64,000 bases of DNA from an archaeon. Lineage in GTDB: Archaea; EX4484-52; WAPT01. Positions 18,147 through 42,873 of the stretch are shown here, piece after piece. The position numbers and the translations under genes are program-made. Below the pieces are notes generated by a model, which had not been told where the DNA came from, made no database searches, and was given only the letters and a program-made list of their open reading frames with translations. How positions within the stretch are numbered: position 1 is the first letter of the stretch; the number at the start of each line of letters is the position of its first letter. Where the stretch lies: positions 1-64,000 of the forward strand of contig JAPDKB010000004.1 of assembly GCA_029258795.1 (NCBI GenBank), in the 5' to 3' direction.

Positions 18147-19385
18147 TTATAAATCTAATTCCTGCTTGAGTAAGAGAAGTATTTTGTCGTGTGTTGTTTT
18201 TGAGATGGAGAGTGAGATCTCTCTTGTCCTCCCATACCTGCCTTTAGAGATGACGCTCGCGTTTATTAAGCCCTGGATGTCGAGCTCCGCTATTATGTCT
18301 GAGACACGTCTTTGTGTTAAGGGTCTCAACCCCATCTGCGCACACAACAACTCGTAGCTTTTCTGTATGTCTCCCGTGAGCACGCACTTCTTTCTTTTGA
18401 GCACGGTTAGAATTGCGAAAAGCACCAATTTCGAGTGTTTGGGTAGCACACGTGCTGCTTCAGTCATCCTGTCAAGATCAAGTTTCTCTTCCGCCATATC
18501 TATGTGCTTTTCCTCCACCCTATCATCATTATTCCTTTCAGCGATCTCACCCGCTATCCTTAATAGGTCAAGAGCCCTTCTCGCATCACCATGTTCCTGC
18601 GCTGCCAGAGCAGCACATTTGTTTATGGCTGCTTCATCTATCTTCCCTTCATTGAAAGCAAGCATGGCCCTATCAAAAAGTATGTCCTTAAGCTGTTCAT
18701 AATTATAAGGTGGAAATATGATCTCCTCTTCAGAAAGTGATGATTTGACTCTGGCATCAAGACAATCTATGAATGAAAGGTCGTTTGATATCCCAATTAT
18801 AGATACGTTCACATCGTTTGTTGTTTCACACATCCTTGTGAAATTGTAAAGAAGCTCGTCCCCAACCTTTTTCACAAGAGCGTCAATCTCATCCAGAACA
18901 AGAATGACGTTTCCACCCACTCTTTCCAGCGCGTTATAAAACCTCCTGTAAACTTCATCAGTAGGGAGGCCGGTTGTTGGTATCTCCTCCCCCAACAAAT
19001 TTGCGAGATGTGCTAAAAGCCTGTACTCTGTGTCGGCAACCTTTTTCATCTTGCAGTTGGCAAAGAGAACCCTCAATTTTATATTATGTTTCTCAGCAAA
19101 AGCTTCCAAATTCGAAGTAACGTAAGTTGTTACTAAGGTTTTACCCGTACCAGTCAACCCGTAAATAAATATATTGGATGGCTTTTCATTTCTGAGGACG
19201 GGAGCTAAAATTCTACTAAGTGTGTTGATCTGCTCATCTCTGTGGTAGATCTTCTCTGGTCGGTATTTGATGGAGAGCGCGTCCTTGTTTTTAAAAATAG
19301 ATTCTTTCTTCATGAAATCTTCAAAGAGGTTTTCCAAGGTTTTTTGTGTTGGAGTTGTGTAATGAGATAGTGTTCTCTCCTCCAT
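18147..19385 (-). CDS. cdc6: Orc1/Cdc6 replication initiator
   Basis: HRDEQI, GLTGTGKT Walker A, VLDEID Walker B, HGDARRALDLLR, SKGRYGRTR winged helix; start taken at MEERT. Confidence 0.97.
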   Translation of the reverse strand: MEERTLSHYTTPTQKTLENLFEDFMKKESIFKNKDALSIKYRPEKIYHRDEQINTLSRILAPVLRNEKPSNIFIYGLTGTGKTLVTTYVTSNLEAFAEKHNIKLRVLFANCKMKKVADTEYRLLAHLANLLGEEIPTTGLPTDEVYRRFYNALERVGGNVILVLDEIDALVKKVGDELLYNFTRMCETTNDVNVSIIGISNDLSFIDCLDARVKSSLSEEEIIFPPYNYEQLKDILFDRAMLAFNEGKIDEAAINKCAALAAQEHGDARRALDLLRIAGEIAERNNDDRVEEKHIDMAEEKLDLDRMTEAARVLPKHSKLVLFAILTVLKRKKCVLTGDIQKSYELLCAQMGLRPLTQRRVSDIIAELDIQGLINASVISKGRYGRTREISLSISKTTHDKILLLLKQELDL

Positions 19386-19388
19386 AAG

Positions 19389-19600
19389 CATCACATGAAA
19401 TATAGGAAGTGTAGGTGTATTGTAACATCTCAATTAAAAAATTTAAAATAATGGTTTGGGTTGGTGTGAGAGACACTCCTTCATTTCTCATGGAATAGAT
19501 AATTATATTAAGCGATTTTTTATAACAATGTTATATTAAAAAACACATCTAAATACCATTCCATTTGAAATCAAGGGGGCACTCCACTAGAAATGATAAG
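19389..19600. promoter_or_regulatory. Replication origin (oriC): inverted ORBs flanking an AT-rich DUE upstream of cdc6
   Basis: ORB(-) cactccttcatttctcatggaata 19474-19497; AT-rich 19498-19557; ORB(+) attccatttgaaatcaaggggg 19558-19579; mini-ORBs at about 19390 and 19582. Confidence 0.85.
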
Positions 19601-19610
19601 AAGTTAATGT

Positions 19611-38490: not shown

Positions 38491-39786
38491 TTACCTCTTG
38501 GTCTTCGGTTCTATCTTCTTTATCCCGTTCATATATGGCCACAGAACCTTGGGTATGTCCACACTACCATCCTCGTTCTGGTAGTTTTCAAGAATTGCGC
38601 ACATGGTTCTTTCCGTCGCTATTCCCGTGCAGTTCAGTATGTGAACATAGCCCTTTGGCTTATCCCCTTCTTTCTCCCTCCACTTTATGTTCAGCTTTCT
38701 TGCCTGATAATCCGTGCAGTTGCTCCCGCTGACCACCTCTCGGTATTTCTGCTGTGCTGGAAACCACACCTCTATATCGTACTTTTTGGCAGCGTTATCG
38801 TTCATCTCTCCCGAGCATATGTTCACAACTCTGTAAGGCAAGCCAAGCTCCTGATAGAACTCTTCAGCATTCCTTATCATTTTTTCATGCCAGTCCCAGC
38901 TTTCCTCAGGCAGACAGAACACTATCTGCTCCACCTTGTCGAACTGATGCACCCTGAATATGCCTTTTGTATCCTTACCATGGCTCCCTGCTTCCCTCCT
39001 GAAATTGGTTGAAAAGCCAACGTATTTTAGGGGGAGGTCATCCTTCAGAAAGGTCTCATCCATGTGGTATGCTAAAATGGATTGCTCAGCAGTAGCTATA
39101 AGGTAAGCATCCATACCCTCCACTTTGTAAAGCGTGTCCTGAAAATCAGCCAGTTCTGAAGCCCCCTTCATGGCTTTGCCACTTATCATATATGGCGTCC
39201 ATAATGGAATGAACCCCTTGGCAACGAGCTTCTCAAAGCCATATCTTATCAGCGCCAAATTCAGGAGCACGAGCTCATTTTTCAAATAATAAAACCTAGA
39301 GCCTATCACTTTTGCAGCTCTTTGGACATCGGCAACATCAAGCATCTCCACCAGGTCAGCATGACCCCTTGGCTTAAACTCAAAGCTTTTCGGCTCACCC
39401 CAGGTGCGCACAATCTCGTTATGCTTTTCCTCATCGTCCCCTACAGGCACGCTCTCATGCAATATATTCCCTATCCTGTAGCGCAGCTCATCCCTCTTCT
39501 GAAGAAATTCCTCCACCTTCCTTTCAAGTTCCGCAATCTCTTCCTTCAATTTCTTCATCTTCTCCACAATCTCGGCTGGAACTTCCCTGCCTTCTCTTTT
39601 TAGCTTCGCAACTTCCTGCAGAATTCTGTTTCTTTCCTCCCTTTTCTTCTGCACTTCCTGTAAGCATTCGCGCCATTTAACATCATACTCCAGAACCTTA
39701 TCCACGATGCTGGGGTCCTTGAACCTCTTGCGTTCAGATTCCTTAACAACATCGGGATGTTCCCGTATGAATTCCATGTCCAGCAT
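38491..39786 (-). CDS. serS: Seryl-tRNA synthetase
   Basis: N-terminal coiled coil, ATAEQ, FRREAG, GIFRVHQFDKVE, SNCTDYQAR. Confidence 0.97.
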   Translation of the reverse strand: MLDMEFIREHPDVVKESERKRFKDPSIVDKVLEYDVKWRECLQEVQKKREERNRILQEVAKLKREGREVPAEIVEKMKKLKEEIAELERKVEEFLQKRDELRYRIGNILHESVPVGDDEEKHNEIVRTWGEPKSFEFKPRGHADLVEMLDVADVQRAAKVIGSRFYYLKNELVLLNLALIRYGFEKLVAKGFIPLWTPYMISGKAMKGASELADFQDTLYKVEGMDAYLIATAEQSILAYHMDETFLKDDLPLKYVGFSTNFRREAGSHGKDTKGIFRVHQFDKVEQIVFCLPEESWDWHEKMIRNAEEFYQELGLPYRVVNICSGEMNDNAAKKYDIEVWFPAQQKYREVVSGSNCTDYQARKLNIKWREKEGDKPKGYVHILNCTGIATERTMCAILENYQNEDGSVDIPKVLWPYMNGIKKIEPKTKR

Positions 39787-39834
39787 GAGCGATCACCACA
39801 AAACCTTTTATAATTCACCTAGTGTTAAATTTTT

Positions 39835-40458
39835 ATGGGTTTGCTCTCCTTCCTTTTTGGAAATAAAAAAGTGGAGAAAGACGTAGAAGAACTTAAAAAT
39901 TCTATGGAATCTTTTAAAGATGACATCAAAAATTTTGCTTTCTCGCTCGCAAAGATGAACGAAAAGATAGTTGAGTTAAATGAAAAGTTTGATGATGAGA
40001 TTGAACAGATTTACGAGAGAATTTCTGAAATTGAAGAAAAAATTAGCATATTGGCTAAATCCACTCGTGTTGGTGTGGAGGCAAAGAAAGAGCTGAAGGA
40101 AGTGAGGGAACAGCTGAGCAAGCTGATTCAAAAGAAAAAGGAAATTAAGAGGGAAAAGCCCGTTCAAGAGATTAATACGGAGGAAACAAGTAAAGTGCAG
40201 GAAATACATGCCTCTGTGAAAGAGGAAATGAGAATGCTGTCTCCTGCTGAAAGAGAAATCCTTTCCGCCTTGCTTTCTTCCGAAATTCCTCTGAGCTACG
40301 AAGAAATAGCCCAGCTTACGGGTAAATCCACAAGTACTGTTAGAGACCATATGAACAACATAAGGAAAAAAACAAATTTGCTGGAAGTGGTAGAAACTCC
40401 GGACAGAAAGAAGCTGTTTAGGATAGCGGTCAAAGCGAAGCAGGAGATCATATTGTAG
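39835..40458 (+). CDS. Coiled-coil protein with N-terminal amphipathic motif and C-terminal winged HTH
   Basis: MGLLSFLFGNKK, long heptad region, LSPAEREIL...LSYEEIAQLTGKSTSTVRDHMNNI HTH. Confidence 0.8.
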   Translation: MGLLSFLFGNKKVEKDVEELKNSMESFKDDIKNFAFSLAKMNEKIVELNEKFDDEIEQIYERISEIEEKISILAKSTRVGVEAKKELKEVREQLSKLIQKKKEIKREKPVQEINTEETSKVQEIHASVKEEMRMLSPAEREILSALLSSEIPLSYEEIAQLTGKSTSTVRDHMNNIRKKTNLLEVVETPDRKKLFRIAVKAKQEIIL

Positions 40459-40463
40459 TTCTA

Positions 40464-40650
40464 TCGAAATTTTCGACACATCTTCGACAGACATTCGACA
40501 CATCTTCGACACTGTCGAAATTTTCGACACATAAAAAAGCACAAGCAAAAGATGCTTTGCACATCTGTGTCGAATAACTGTCGAAATTTTCGACACATCT
40601 TCGACAGACATTCGACACATCTTCGACAGACATTCGACACATCTTCGACA
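40464..40650. repeat. Phased 11-bp direct-repeat array (core TTCGACA) with palindromic junctions
   Basis: TTCGACA at 40472, 40483, 40494, 40505, 40523, 40589, 40600, 40611, 40622, 40633, 40644; inverted TGTCGAA at 40513, 40568, 40579. Confidence 0.95.
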
Positions 40651-40718
40651 CTCAAACACAGCCATTTCCTATTAACGTACATATAAGTCCGAATTAGAAA
40701 CAAGGAAGTTCGTTAAAA

Positions 40719-41807
40719 TTACCTTGTGATTTCAACATTCTTTATGAACTCGTAAAGCTCCCTTGCTTTCTTGTTCTTTTCGAAGTGCTCTCTTATCGGT
40801 TTTATGAGCTTTTCCAGATGCGCTGCCACAGCCATCTTCAGATCAAGCGGGTGGAGCTTGCCCTCTCTATAATCCCCTTCAACCTCCTCGTACGAGCCAT
40901 AAACAACGTCTCCTCCGAACTTCTCCGGACGCTCAACCTTGAACTCATCAAACGCTCTGAAAATTATGTGCTTGACGTAATCCATAATCGGATTGTCCTC
41001 AACAACCTTTTCAGGACAGTACGCCTTCCTTATCTTTCTCACGATCTCCTCGCAGCTATCATGAACAAATATGGCTGAATCGGGCTTGCTCTTGCTCATT
41101 TTGGAAGAAATTTCCTTATCTATTTTCTTGTTTTCATCATACCCTTCTCCCTCCTTTGGCCCTTCCAGCCCCATCAGGATATGGTGGCTGACAACTACTG
41201 GCTTTTTCCACCCAAGCTTATCAGCCATCTCCCTTGCAAGCATGTTCACTTTCCTCTGATCCATCCCAAGCTGGCATATGTCAACATCAAGATGGAACAC
41301 GTCAGCACACTGCATTGAAGGATAGAATAGGAATGCCGTCGGATTGTTCTCTCTCCCAACTCTTCCCGCCACCGTCAAACATCTCATGCCCCGCTGAATT
41401 GTGTGGTTTTTCGCTATTAAAATAACCTTTTTCCAGTATTCTGGATCATCAAAATGCTCTTTATGCCACACAACATCAACCTTATTCATGTCAACTCCCG
41501 CAGCTTTCCATACCTCCAGAAAGTATTCTCCACACTTCCTTATTTTTTCAATATCTCCTCCCAGCTTGTTGTTTATCCATGCAAAGCTGTCCGCAAGCAA
41601 AAGCTTGAAGTGCACACCCGCCTTCATGAGATCCCTGAGCAGAAGGGGTCGAAAAACACCAACAGGCAGATGCGCTATACCACTCGGCTCAAAACCATCA
41701 TAAGCCACAATCCTATCTTTCGTTTCAACAAGCTCCCTGAGCTCTTTTTCCGTCACAATCTCTTCTCCCACGCCCGCTATGAGCTGGAAGCGCGTCTCCG
41801 CATCCAT
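40719..41807 (-). CDS. tyrS: Tyrosyl-tRNA synthetase (archaeal/eukaryotic type)
   Basis: YDGFEPSG, YPSMQCAD, GMDQRKV, KMSKS, LHPLDLK; start at MDAET. Confidence 0.96.
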   Translation of the reverse strand: MDAETRFQLIAGVGEEIVTEKELRELVETKDRIVAYDGFEPSGIAHLPVGVFRPLLLRDLMKAGVHFKLLLADSFAWINNKLGGDIEKIRKCGEYFLEVWKAAGVDMNKVDVVWHKEHFDDPEYWKKVILIAKNHTIQRGMRCLTVAGRVGRENNPTAFLFYPSMQCADVFHLDVDICQLGMDQRKVNMLAREMADKLGWKKPVVVSHHILMGLEGPKEGEGYDENKKIDKEISSKMSKSKPDSAIFVHDSCEEIVRKIRKAYCPEKVVEDNPIMDYVKHIIFRAFDEFKVERPEKFGGDVVYGSYEEVEGDYREGKLHPLDLKMAVAAHLEKLIKPIREHFEKNKKARELYEFIKNVEITR

Positions 41808-41847
41808 AAGGTTATGGTTAAGTACTTTACACTTTAAATTTGTTGTC

Positions 41848-42873
41848 ATGATCGAGATTGACGGGAGTTATGGTGAGGGCGGAGGCCAGATAGTTCGGGC
41901 TGCCATGGCTTATTCCTGCCTTACGGGCCAGCCCACAAGAATATTTAACATACGGGCTAAGCGTTCCAATCCCGGGTTAAGGAAGCAACACGCAACAGCG
42001 ATAAAAGTGCTCGCAAATTTATTCAAGGCGGAGGTTGAGGGAGTAAGCGTTGGAAGCAAGGAGGTGACTTTCAAACCCGGGAGTGAGGTGAGGAGTGGTA
42101 ACTTCACTTTTGAAATAGGTAGTGCGGGCTCAATAACTCTGGTTCTTCAGAGCGTTACCTTCGCTTTGATAGGAAGAAAGTGCAAAATAACTCTCACAAT
42201 CAAGGGAGGTACAGATGTGCCCTTCTCCCCAACCTTTGATTATTTCAAGCACTGCTATCTAGCATTACTCTCACGTTTTGGGTACGAGGCAAGCGCTGAA
42301 GTGGCGAGGCGCGGCTATTATCCGGAAGGCGGAGGGGAAGTGAAGTTCACGTTTAGGAAGCATGAACCCCAGCCAATATTGATGAACGATTGTGAAGAAG
42401 ATTTAAAGGTATTCCGCGTGCTCGCTTCCGCTTCCAGCAACCTGCAGAAAGGCAGAGTATGTGAGAGAACGATAAATTCCGCTATTCACCACATCCTGAA
42501 GAACTTTGGAGAGGTGAAGGTTGAGACATGCAGACACTACTCTCAAACCCGATCCACTGGAGCAGCACTTTGTATAGTCGGTTCCGGCGGGGAAAGAATG
42601 ATCGGCGTTGATTTGCTCGGGAAGAGAGGTCTCCCCTCAGAAGAAATCGGGAAGAGGTGTGTTGAACTCATAAAAAATGAAAGTAAAAGTGGGGCATGTG
42701 TGGATTTTCATCTTGCTGACCATCTGGTTCCTTTTCTAGCAACTTGTGGTGGAGAAATAAAAACTTCTCATATAACGGAGCACACCAAGACGATGGTCTG
42801 GCTTGCCAACAGATTCATGGATGGATGCTTGAAAATAGAGGGGAACTTGATAAAATCATTAAATAAGGGTTAG
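41848..42873 (+). CDS. rtcA: RNA 3'-terminal phosphate cyclase
   Basis: IDGSYGEGGGQIVR, PGLRKQH, GGTDV, RGYYPEGGG, DFHLADH. Confidence 0.95.
   Translation: MIEIDGSYGEGGGQIVRAAMAYSCLTGQPTRIFNIRAKRSNPGLRKQHATAIKVLANLFKAEVEGVSVGSKEVTFKPGSEVRSGNFTFEIGSAGSITLVLQSVTFALIGRKCKITLTIKGGTDVPFSPTFDYFKHCYLALLSRFGYEASAEVARRGYYPEGGGEVKFTFRKHEPQPILMNDCEEDLKVFRVLASASSNLQKGRVCERTINSAIHHILKNFGEVKVETCRHYSQTRSTGAALCIVGSGGERMIGVDLLGKRGLPSEEIGKRCVELIKNESKSGACVDFHLADHLVPFLATCGGEIKTSHITEHTKTMVWLANRFMDGCLKIEGNLIKSLNKG

Follow-up and report, generated by a model that had tools for sequence, protein, structure and literature searches.

Stalked winged-helix proteins of DPANN archaea and the phased repeat arrays beside their genes: a candidate anchoring or centromere-like pair

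Why should the gene for a small archaeal protein be followed, almost from its stop codon onward, by a dense array of short repeats set 11 bp apart? The locus in question lies in a window of 64,000 nucleotides at the start of contig C4 (C4:1-64000) of an archaeal assembly of 23 contigs and 1,168,407 bp, here called G000. It comprises a gene for a 207-amino-acid (aa) protein and an array built from the core TTCGACA (Table 1). A sequence-only reading of this DNA had proposed that the protein binds the array and tethers the locus to the membrane or divisome, as a segregation or anchoring system that operates without ParA. Our comparisons suggest that the adjacent protein very probably loads on this array, because the array's cores are kept at 50% protein identity, arrays accompany homologous genes in two phyla, the cores shift with lineage and with the helix-turn-helix (HTH) domain, and no other clustered sites were found in the genome. 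We consider it close to an even prospect, although slightly short of one, that protein and array are a cognate pair that forms a centromere-like complex or one that anchors the DNA to the membrane or to a partner.

The composition of the array agrees with the sequence-only reading in every count. TTCGACA occurs 21 times in the window, compared with 6.98 expected copies and a maximum of 17 in any of 100 shuffles. Fourteen of these cores are packed into positions 40472-40650, and the other seven correspond to chance level. Eleven of the packed cores are direct and three are inverted, with the direct cores standing in runs of four and six at a spacing of exactly 11 bp, plus one single copy. Tandem Repeats Finder describes block 2 as 2.8 copies of the 22-bp unit TTCGACACATCTTCGACAGACA at 100% identity. 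Two perfect 17-bp palindromes (TGTCGAAATTTTCGACA) are present at 40513 and 40579 as claimed. The array starts, 3 nt past the stop codon, with a further copy that has one mismatch. The whole array sits between the 3' ends of the protein gene and a class-I Trp/Tyr-tRNA synthetase gene. Because these flanking genes are convergent, the array is not a promoter operator in G000, which bears out the earlier expectation. The possibility of an RNA gene in the array or spacer was rejected, as a search of 39500-41000 gave no Rfam match at E<=1 and the spacer sequence has not been kept from one congener to the other.

No second array of this kind exists in the assembly. There are 103 TTCGACA cores in all of G000, and a density of at least three per 100 bp is reached only here. 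The array is also the top-scoring 400-bp repeat window among 5807. Paired sites elsewhere in G000 (allowing at most 1+1 mismatches) number only six, each carrying 1-2 mismatches. Elsewhere among the repeat windows, several 400-bp windows on contig C1 (~300,200-302,000) each hold an 8-mer six times (GTTTGAGA and others) and probably mark a CRISPR array.

Support from sequencing reads, which the sequence-only reading had wished to see, was obtained in the form of identical array pieces in contigs from four runs of two studies. The array is for this reason not an assembly artefact. Short-read contigs do break inside it, and parts of it are without contig cover. One contig from run X1 joins position 40536 to 40684 via 19 other letters, and therefore represents a strain variant without the spacer and block 2. 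Natural strains differ in the number of array blocks.

The protein itself is composed of three parts (Table 1). A hydrophobic-basic peptide at the N terminus, which is a putative membrane- or partner-binding motif, leads into a single long alpha-helix, then into a linker predicted to be disordered (residues 106-120) and finally into a winged HTH (wHTH) domain. In the AlphaFold2 (AF2) model, which was built from a 63-sequence alignment and has a mean predicted local distance difference test (pLDDT) score of 89.5, the putative recognition helix spans residues 166-179 and the wing spans residues 183-197. The long coiled coil noted earlier from the letters alone corresponds to the single helix predicted by AF2, and the C-terminal HTH to the wHTH seen by AF2 and Foldseek. 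An ESCRT-III/PspA-like hairpin for the N-terminal half was considered and dismissed, given that AF2 predicts one continuous helix and no such match was returned by Foldseek or Pfam. A homodimer prediction scored 0.12 against a mark of 0.42.

Only the C-terminal 85-100 residues are matched by Foldseek, and the matches are wHTH proteins of the MarR/ArsR/SmtB/Lrs14 type (E 1e-4 to 1e-3), including the MepR-DNA structure 4lll (1.1e-4), SmtB, NolR, and ST1889. The winged HTH fold of MarR/ArsR factors is therefore present, but these factors are compact dimers at promoters, whereas here a stalk of ~95 residues and the N-terminal peptide precede the wHTH. Pfam returned Sigma70_r4_2 (8.4e-6) along with HTH_20, HTH_5, and HTH_24, all generic models near their cut-offs, with MarR and HTH_5 scoring below or near theirs. 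At E<=1 the Pfam scan yielded HTH and coiled-coil models only and no ParBc, and the AF2 model contains no globular N-terminal domain of the kind found in ParB-like proteins. No curated Pfam or NCBIfam family spans the protein. A PDB sequence search gave generic coiled-coil and HTH matches only, and matches in the ESM Atlas belong to unnamed Nanobdellota clusters.

In the N-terminal peptide it is the general character, and not the exact sequence, that has been conserved. Using a rule that demands at least four hydrophobic residues and at least one aromatic residue among residues 2-10, and at least two K/R among residues 6-16, the motif was found in 97 of 142 full-length representatives, with the consensus M-G-[FL]-[LF]-D-x-[FL]-x-K-K. 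Ahead of the gene, the TATA-like box TTTTATAA may be the promoter of a near-leaderless transcript; a similar T/A box stands at the same place in the congeners G001 and G002. The gene is flanked by a divergent seryl-tRNA synthetase (SerRS) gene and by the convergent Trp/TyrRS gene.

Table 1. Features of the 207-aa protein gene, its array and the orc1/cdc6 region in the 64,000-nucleotide window
Feature	Position	Strand	Basis or content
TATA-like box TTTTATAA	39806..39813	+	Read from sequence; 22 bp before ATG
Gene for 207-aa protein	39835..40458 (stop included)	+	Open reading frame (ORF); congener homologues E 1e-47, same synteny
N-terminal hydrophobic-basic peptide MGLLSFLFGNKK, residues 1-12	39835..39870	+	AF2 helix at residues 3-7
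Single long alpha-helix (stalk), residues 10-105	39862..40149	+	AF2 model m5034d2799f92, block pLDDT 90-97
C-terminal winged HTH, residues 126-206	40210..40452	+	AF2, Foldseek, Pfam
Array block 1	40462..40529		Degenerate palindrome 40462-40478; direct cores 40472, 40483, 40494, 40505
Array block 1, 3' part	40513-40529		Perfect palindrome, including single direct core 40523 and inverted core 40513
Spacer between array blocks	40530..40565		36 bp; poorly conserved between G000 and G001
Array block 2	40566..40650		Inverted core 40568; perfect palindrome 40579-40595 with inverted core 40579
Array block 2, direct part	40589-40650		Six direct cores (40589, 40600, 40611, 40622, 40633, 40644), 11-bp spacing, 2.8 copies of 22-bp unit
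Class-I Trp/Tyr-tRNA synthetase gene	40719..41849	-	Convergent neighbour, downstream of array
orc1/cdc6 gene	18147-19433	-	TIGR02928, 430 bits
ORB-like elements TTCCATTTGAAATCAAGGGGG, CTCCACTAGAAAT with G-string	19434-19610 (177-bp intergenic region)		Read from sequence

Relatives of the pair were sought within the same phylum, which is represented by 42 species genomes, all in one order. The proteins of congeners G001 and G002 are 50% identical to the G000 protein, and the order SerRS, gene, array, TrpRS is kept. The G001 array is likewise built of two blocks, with the same palindrome and the same 11-bp TTCGACA(C/G) cores, whereas only the first 44 bp of the G002 array are present before its contig ends. 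When the arrays of G000 and G001 are aligned, the cores are identical, block 1 agrees almost base for base, and block 2 is conserved, but the spacer has diverged. The trinucleotide between cores is ATC in every G000 copy (40472-40650) and AAC in every G001 copy (L003, 2160-2360). This homogenization within each species points to concerted evolution under constraint.

Other genera of the phylum also carry arrays directly past the stop codon, but with different cores. In place of the TTCGACA of genus g1, to which G000 belongs, the arrays have GATAGTATCG with GGTTACC in genus g6, TTAATCGA in g8, AAACATAACTA in g4, and TGTT(AT/GC/GT)AACA, that is TGTTATAACA, TGTTGCAACA and TGTTGTAACA, in g3, g10 and g12.

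The family extends well beyond this phylum. A profile search of 1.84 billion protein representatives recovered 569 at E<=1e-3 and 117 at E<=1e-10, and most of the matches listed are ~180-310 aa long with the same three-part layout. The G000 protein used alone to query the species genomes returned only two unrelated HTH matches. Loci were fetched from the species genomes with alignments of three subfamilies: A3 (23 loci, labelled Woesearchaeota or Nanobdellota), A5 (7 loci), and A4 (the best 80 of 501 encoded relatives among 185,579 species genomes, labelled Pacearchaeota, Woesearchaeota or Nanoarchaeota). Each 400-bp flank was then assigned an array score, defined as the largest count of any strand-collapsed 8-mer, and a score of at least 4 was taken as an array; loci with <200 bp of flank were excluded from each count.

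Read as counts and not as probabilities, because related genomes are not independent, the scores place an array downstream of the gene at 31 of 38 loci of the phylum and A3 taken together and upstream at 1 of 41. The corresponding values for A5 are 7/7 and 0/7. In A4 the array is mostly on the other side, with 15/80 downstream and 53/79 upstream, the latter lying 60-330 bp before the start codon. As background, G000 has 40 windows out of 5807 with scores of at least 4, G042 has 70 out of 9193, and the loci have 4 out of 367 outside the flanks counted here. Homologues with neighbouring arrays, which the sequence-only reading had called for, are therefore found in the phylum, in Woesearchaeota, and in Pacearchaeota.

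Equally, its expectation that the core would vary together with the HTH domain is matched by the comparison, in that cores differ between lineages with different recognition helices. The core is CATT(AT/GC)AATG in A3, C(A/G)TTATAA in A5, and GCTGTTTAAACAGC in A4. In A3, the HTH is nearly invariant and one motif is used, at only 32-67% protein identity, and the spacer is ~150 bp long and T-rich. Same-strand spacings mostly approximate one or two helical turns, with 11 bp in g1 and 10, 12, and 20-22 bp in A3, A5, and A4; in g3 the spacing is 27 bp.

Additional sequence elements were encountered at A4 loci. CTCAC(A/T)T was tried as a universal second motif of the spacer and rejected, since it is enriched in the Pacearchaeota subfamily only (3.67 vs 0.51 per kb) and not in the phylum of G000 (0.64 vs 0.50). 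In its strand-specific form (GG)AAAAGTGAGAGTTA, the motif is present in 175 copies in the 80 A4 loci (L172-L251), in the 600 bp downstream of the gene and within an A-rich stretch. A second short palindrome like TTTATCGTCGA was seen by eye in or beside the upstream GCTGTTTAAACAGC arrays at L176, L213, L242, and L245.

The module, by which we mean the gene together with its array, is a single-copy chromosomal feature. One full-length copy of the gene was found in each of 5 + 18 further genomes checked. On the complete 1.84-Mb chromosome G042 (L061), CATTNNAATG occurs 34 times compared with 37 expected, and its sole cluster is at the module. Searches of viral contigs with A3 and A4 queries, and of phage and plasmid collections with the G000 protein, found no relatives. 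The mobile context and Rep-type initiator of an iteron plasmid are accordingly missing from this single-copy, chromosomal gene. At L020 (G041:C33; a genome with 8% contamination), a truncated second copy consisting of the HTH part only lies ~480 bp downstream of the gene.

SerRS is the upstream neighbour in two families of the phylum, and the genes downstream are varied (TrpRS, NUDIX, DUF373, Xer-like recombinase, PGM). Because neighbours vary between loci, the array follows this gene and not a neighbouring one. Among recurrent neighbours, an Xer-like tyrosine recombinase (L019, L022, L023, L270) and a NUDIX hydrolase (L014, L073, L074, L271) are each found at four loci, across phyla. Of the 21 A3 loci scanned, 11 have a gene for a small AAA_18 NTPase immediately upstream and in the same orientation; it is adenylate-kinase-like and not a ParA.

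Partner ATPases deserve particular attention, because the sequence-only reading had described the system as free of ParA. The gene in G000 adjoins SerRS and Trp/TyrRS genes and no ParA gene, in contrast to type I partition systems. No ParA-like gene was found among 65 neighbour ORFs of the phylum and A3 or among 12 ORFs of two A4 loci, these being the A4 loci included in a neighbour scan that did not extend to A5. TubZ, the mark of type III systems, is likewise absent from the neighbours in G000 and from the 65 neighbour ORFs scanned. Elsewhere in G000, however, there are ParA/MinD-like (AAA_31) proteins, three of ~260 aa and one of 298 aa, on contigs C5, C1, C6, and C2. The absence of an adjacent NTPase gene therefore does not permit a claim that the system works without ParA, given at least three such ATPases encoded elsewhere in the genome.

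How does the module relate to the replication origin? An orc1/cdc6 gene and adjoining origin recognition box (ORB)-like elements make up the probable oriC of G000 (18147-19610), at a distance of 20.4 kb from the 207-aa protein gene. Inspection of positions 40459-40718, which cover the array and its flanks, showed no ORB-like elements, unlike what is expected of an Orc1/Cdc6-ORB origin. We located orc1 in G000 and 28 further genomes, chosen either for having the module on a long contig or as the better genomes of the phylum. In 18 of these 29 genomes, 2.3-20.5 kb separate the module from the best orc1/cdc6 match. The 18 are G000, 15 of 16 A4 genomes (2.3-13.4 kb; in G047 the two are on different contigs), and both A5 genomes (10.6 kb).

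The array is nevertheless not an Orc1 origin, because the ORB-like elements adjoin orc1, the GC skew of G042 turns elsewhere, and an AT-rich region of its own accompanies orc1; there is no sign of any origin function. In G042, the cumulative GC skew has its maximum at ~130-170 kb and its minimum at ~990 kb beside an orc1 paralogue, with the module (734 kb) on the slope. The skew of G000 contig C4 mostly follows gene strand. In G046 and G052, the order is orc1, its own very AT-rich 0.8-kb intergenic region, three genes, and then the module.

Several mundane or competing explanations must be weighed against anchoring or segregation. It is rather unlikely, in our estimation, that the protein is simply a transcription factor whose operator happens to be repetitive, using its stalk for oligomerization as does the autoregulator KfrA. 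The domain is a wHTH of MarR/ArsR type, and KfrA is reported to bind its own promoter at five direct repeats of 9 bp (PMC7783346). In A4, where the array lies upstream at the promoter, autoregulation probably plays a part. Yet sites past the stop codon between convergent genes would be hard to explain if the protein were only an autoregulator, and elsewhere than in A4 the arrays are predominantly downstream, beside neighbours that vary. The lack of other paired sites in G000 implies that there is no regulon, and a regulator acting only on itself is unlikely to be kept as a single-copy gene across phyla. Far less credible is a neutral variable-number tandem repeat or an assembly artefact without function. 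Short-read contigs break inside the array, one strain variant is without block 2, and the homogenized trinucleotides between cores indicate repeat turnover. These signs are outweighed by cores that persist at 50% protein identity, by arrays with lineage-specific cores beside homologous genes in two phyla, and by identical array pieces in multiple runs, such that functionless repetition can almost certainly be set aside.

Two other possibilities would grant the array a role in chromosome maintenance of a different kind. The array could be a centromere served by an unlinked ParA/MinD-type ATPase, with the N-terminal peptide contacting and activating the ATPase instead of binding the membrane. 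Known systems include centromere-binding proteins whose basic N-terminal peptides activate a ParA ATPase, and G000 encodes four candidate AAA_31 proteins. Moreover, HpaB and SegB are reported to be archaeal centromere binders with ParA-like partners (PMC13722703, PMC12139799). No ATPase gene is adjacent in G000, however, none resembling ParA was seen among the scanned neighbours, and the recurrent AAA_18 NTPase of A3 is of another type; we therefore regard this arrangement as improbable. We place still less weight on a replication element, be it an Orc-independent second origin with iterons and initiator or a control locus near oriC that titrates or sequesters a factor. Two repeat blocks surround a spacer beside a wHTH gene, as might be imagined for such an element, the A3 spacer is long and T-rich, and the module is often near orc1. 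Against this stand the ORB-like elements beside orc1 and not in the array, the short and unconserved G000 spacer, the separate AT-rich region and three intervening genes in G046 and G052, the lack of plasmid or virus relatives in the collections searched, and the skew extremes of G042 away from the module, the skew being weak evidence in archaea. A replication role thus appears quite improbable.

If the pair does form an anchoring or centromere-like complex, the following sequence of events can be envisioned. The wHTH domains would bind TTCGACA half-sites, probably as pairs held by the long helix, and the palindromes would take two inverted half-sites. Along the 11-bp direct repeats, one protein after another would sit on the same side of the double helix, and up to ~14 half-sites filled side by side would produce one large nucleoprotein complex per chromosome. 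Helical stalks of ~14 nm would then project the hydrophobic-basic N termini away from the DNA. A single peptide might bind weakly, but the array would make many of them act multivalently, so that a locus that is often close to the origin becomes attached to the cell membrane or to a partner associated with it. This tethering proposal derives from the way the protein combines its hydrophobic-basic end and ~14-nm stalk with a DNA-binding domain that would be loaded many times side by side. A more specific version, which we offer only tentatively and consider doubtful, is a one-protein centromere of DPANN archaea, wherein a single-copy core adaptor on a unique array near oriC is tied to the membrane without a dedicated motor ATPase, so that attachment to the envelope would segregate or position the chromosome.

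A number of observations weigh against anchoring and segregation, and they concern the DNA, the protein, and the distribution of both. The units of 8 bp in g8 and 9 bp in g6 do not fit binding on one face. Helical phasing as originally proposed therefore holds for the 11-bp repeats here and for the 10- and 12-bp register of three other subfamilies, and fails in two genera. A strain lacking block 2 exists in run X1, and two loci (L059, L020) carry the gene without an array. The upstream location of most A4 arrays, at the gene's own promoter, fits plain autoregulation. Only 20 of the 42 phylum genomes matched the family profile, and among the 10 of high quality the number was 8, which means that some members of the phylum may lack the gene.

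Likewise, the amphipathic N-terminal helix proposed earlier stands only in part. Its hydrophobic-basic character is conserved, but the helical hydrophobic moment of the peptide is low in the 207-aa protein, at 0.17, and so short a peptide could be a protein-contact peptide instead. Proximity to orc1 is also uneven. None of the five A3 genomes falls within the 2.3-20.5 kb range, with distances of 402 and 241 kb in G042 and 209 and 71 kb in G045 and different contigs in the other three, and the distance in G011 of the G000 phylum is 92 kb. The two are on different contigs in 8 of the 29 genomes, among them G001, G002, G004, and G009. Because fragmented assemblies bias toward short distances and the 15 near-orc1 A4 genomes are kin, the frequent proximity to orc1 is suggestive rather than decisive.

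We found no description of this protein family or its arrays in the literature, nor any account of chromosome organization or segregation in the ultra-small, mostly uncultured DPANN archaea. In a preprint that reports 208 complete Nanobdellota genomes (10.64898/2026.05.13.725050), a “winged-HTH regulator,” OG0000296, appears among the single-copy core proteins and may belong to the present family. What would be new, then, is a family with the architecture of a site-specific anchoring or centromere-binding protein in a superphylum for which no such system has been described.

The size of this unannotated family, with 501 relatives in A4 alone, makes its function worth pursuing, particularly because little is known of how archaeal chromosomes are organized and segregated. 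The pair offers a predictable DNA target beside the gene, which is testable without culturing the organisms. A one-protein centromere, should it prove real, would be a living instance of the membrane-attached chromosome of the replicon model and the first candidate segregation device for the DPANN superphylum. Even if anchoring fails, the family still supplies wHTH domains and their sites in a natural series along which specificity diverges.

Centromeres, origins, and tethers to the membrane or cell pole all come to mind for a protein devoted to one cluster of sites, and comparison with known examples of each is instructive. The TubR/tubC and ParR/parC (plasmid R1) systems have arrays of 11-12-bp direct repeats in two blocks beside the gene for the binder, which binds cooperatively. 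They are plasmid-borne and, as far as is known, always have an adjacent gene for a filament-forming NTPase (TubZ or ParM). The array of G000, with four and six direct cores flanking a 36-bp spacer beside the gene, has the layout of parC, but ParR is a ribbon-helix-helix protein whereas the 207-aa protein is a winged HTH. TubR combines a winged-HTH binder with an iteron array as seen here, a likeness of fold class only; TubR was not specifically similar among the Foldseek matches listed. Neither TubR nor ParR is known to have a long stalk or hydrophobic N-terminal peptide, and the module described here is chromosomal, single-copy, and without an adjacent NTPase gene.

Replicons with iterons show a comparable likeness, in that repeats in an ~11/22-bp register lie beside a winged-helix gene in two blocks around a spacer. 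The module differs from these, and from Orc1-ORB origins, in having no Rep-like double winged-helix, AAA+ domain, or helicase loader. An Orc1/ORB origin is further set apart by the location of the ORB-like elements, 20 kb off beside orc1, and by a G042 skew that turns elsewhere than at the module.

Closer in proposed function are Noc/NBS and RacA/ram of Bacillus subtilis, whose DNA-binding proteins fasten sites on the chromosome to the membrane or to a pole of the cell. Noc has an N-terminal amphipathic helix whose weak binding is made effective by multimerization on DNA, and RacA joins an HTH to a coiled coil. Both act at many dispersed sites, and Noc belongs to the ParB family, whereas no ParB-like domain is present in the 207-aa protein.

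Other partial likenesses come from plasmids and archaea. KfrA of plasmid RA3 is described as an HTH with a very long alpha-helical tail that recognizes its repeats beside its own gene, and its DNA binding is reported to be needed for stable inheritance (PMC7783346). As described there, it differs in having its HTH at the N terminus, an operator overlapping the promoter, a plasmid location, no terminal hydrophobic peptide, and action together with ParA/ParB (IncC/KorB). SegB of the SegAB system is archaeal and reportedly binds a centromeric sequence adjoining its own operon (PMC12139799). SegB and HpaB (of HpaAB) are each encoded in an operon with a ParA-like ATPase, HpaB likely binds DNA through a ribbon-helix-helix motif, and, as they are presented in these reports, neither has the architecture seen here (PMC12139799, PMC13722703).

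The closest experimental precedent that we found is RicO/ricS of Staphylococcus aureus (10.64898/2026.03.06.710092). In RicO, a coiled coil is reported to follow the DNA-binding domain and to precede an amphipathic helix at the C terminus, and the protein is reported to bind nine origin-proximal 18-bp ricS sites spread over ~700 kb. According to the same preprint, the DNA-binding domain and the helix are both needed for polar positioning of the origin and normal segregation, and the model proposed is that RicO itself links DNA to membrane, with no NTPase dedicated to the task. The 207-aa protein would share all three parts, its N-terminal membrane binding being putative, but in the reverse order, and its sites form one array beside the gene rather than being dispersed as they are in this bacterial (Firmicutes) example. 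If the anchoring reading holds true, protein and array would constitute an archaeal counterpart of the bacterial RicO system.

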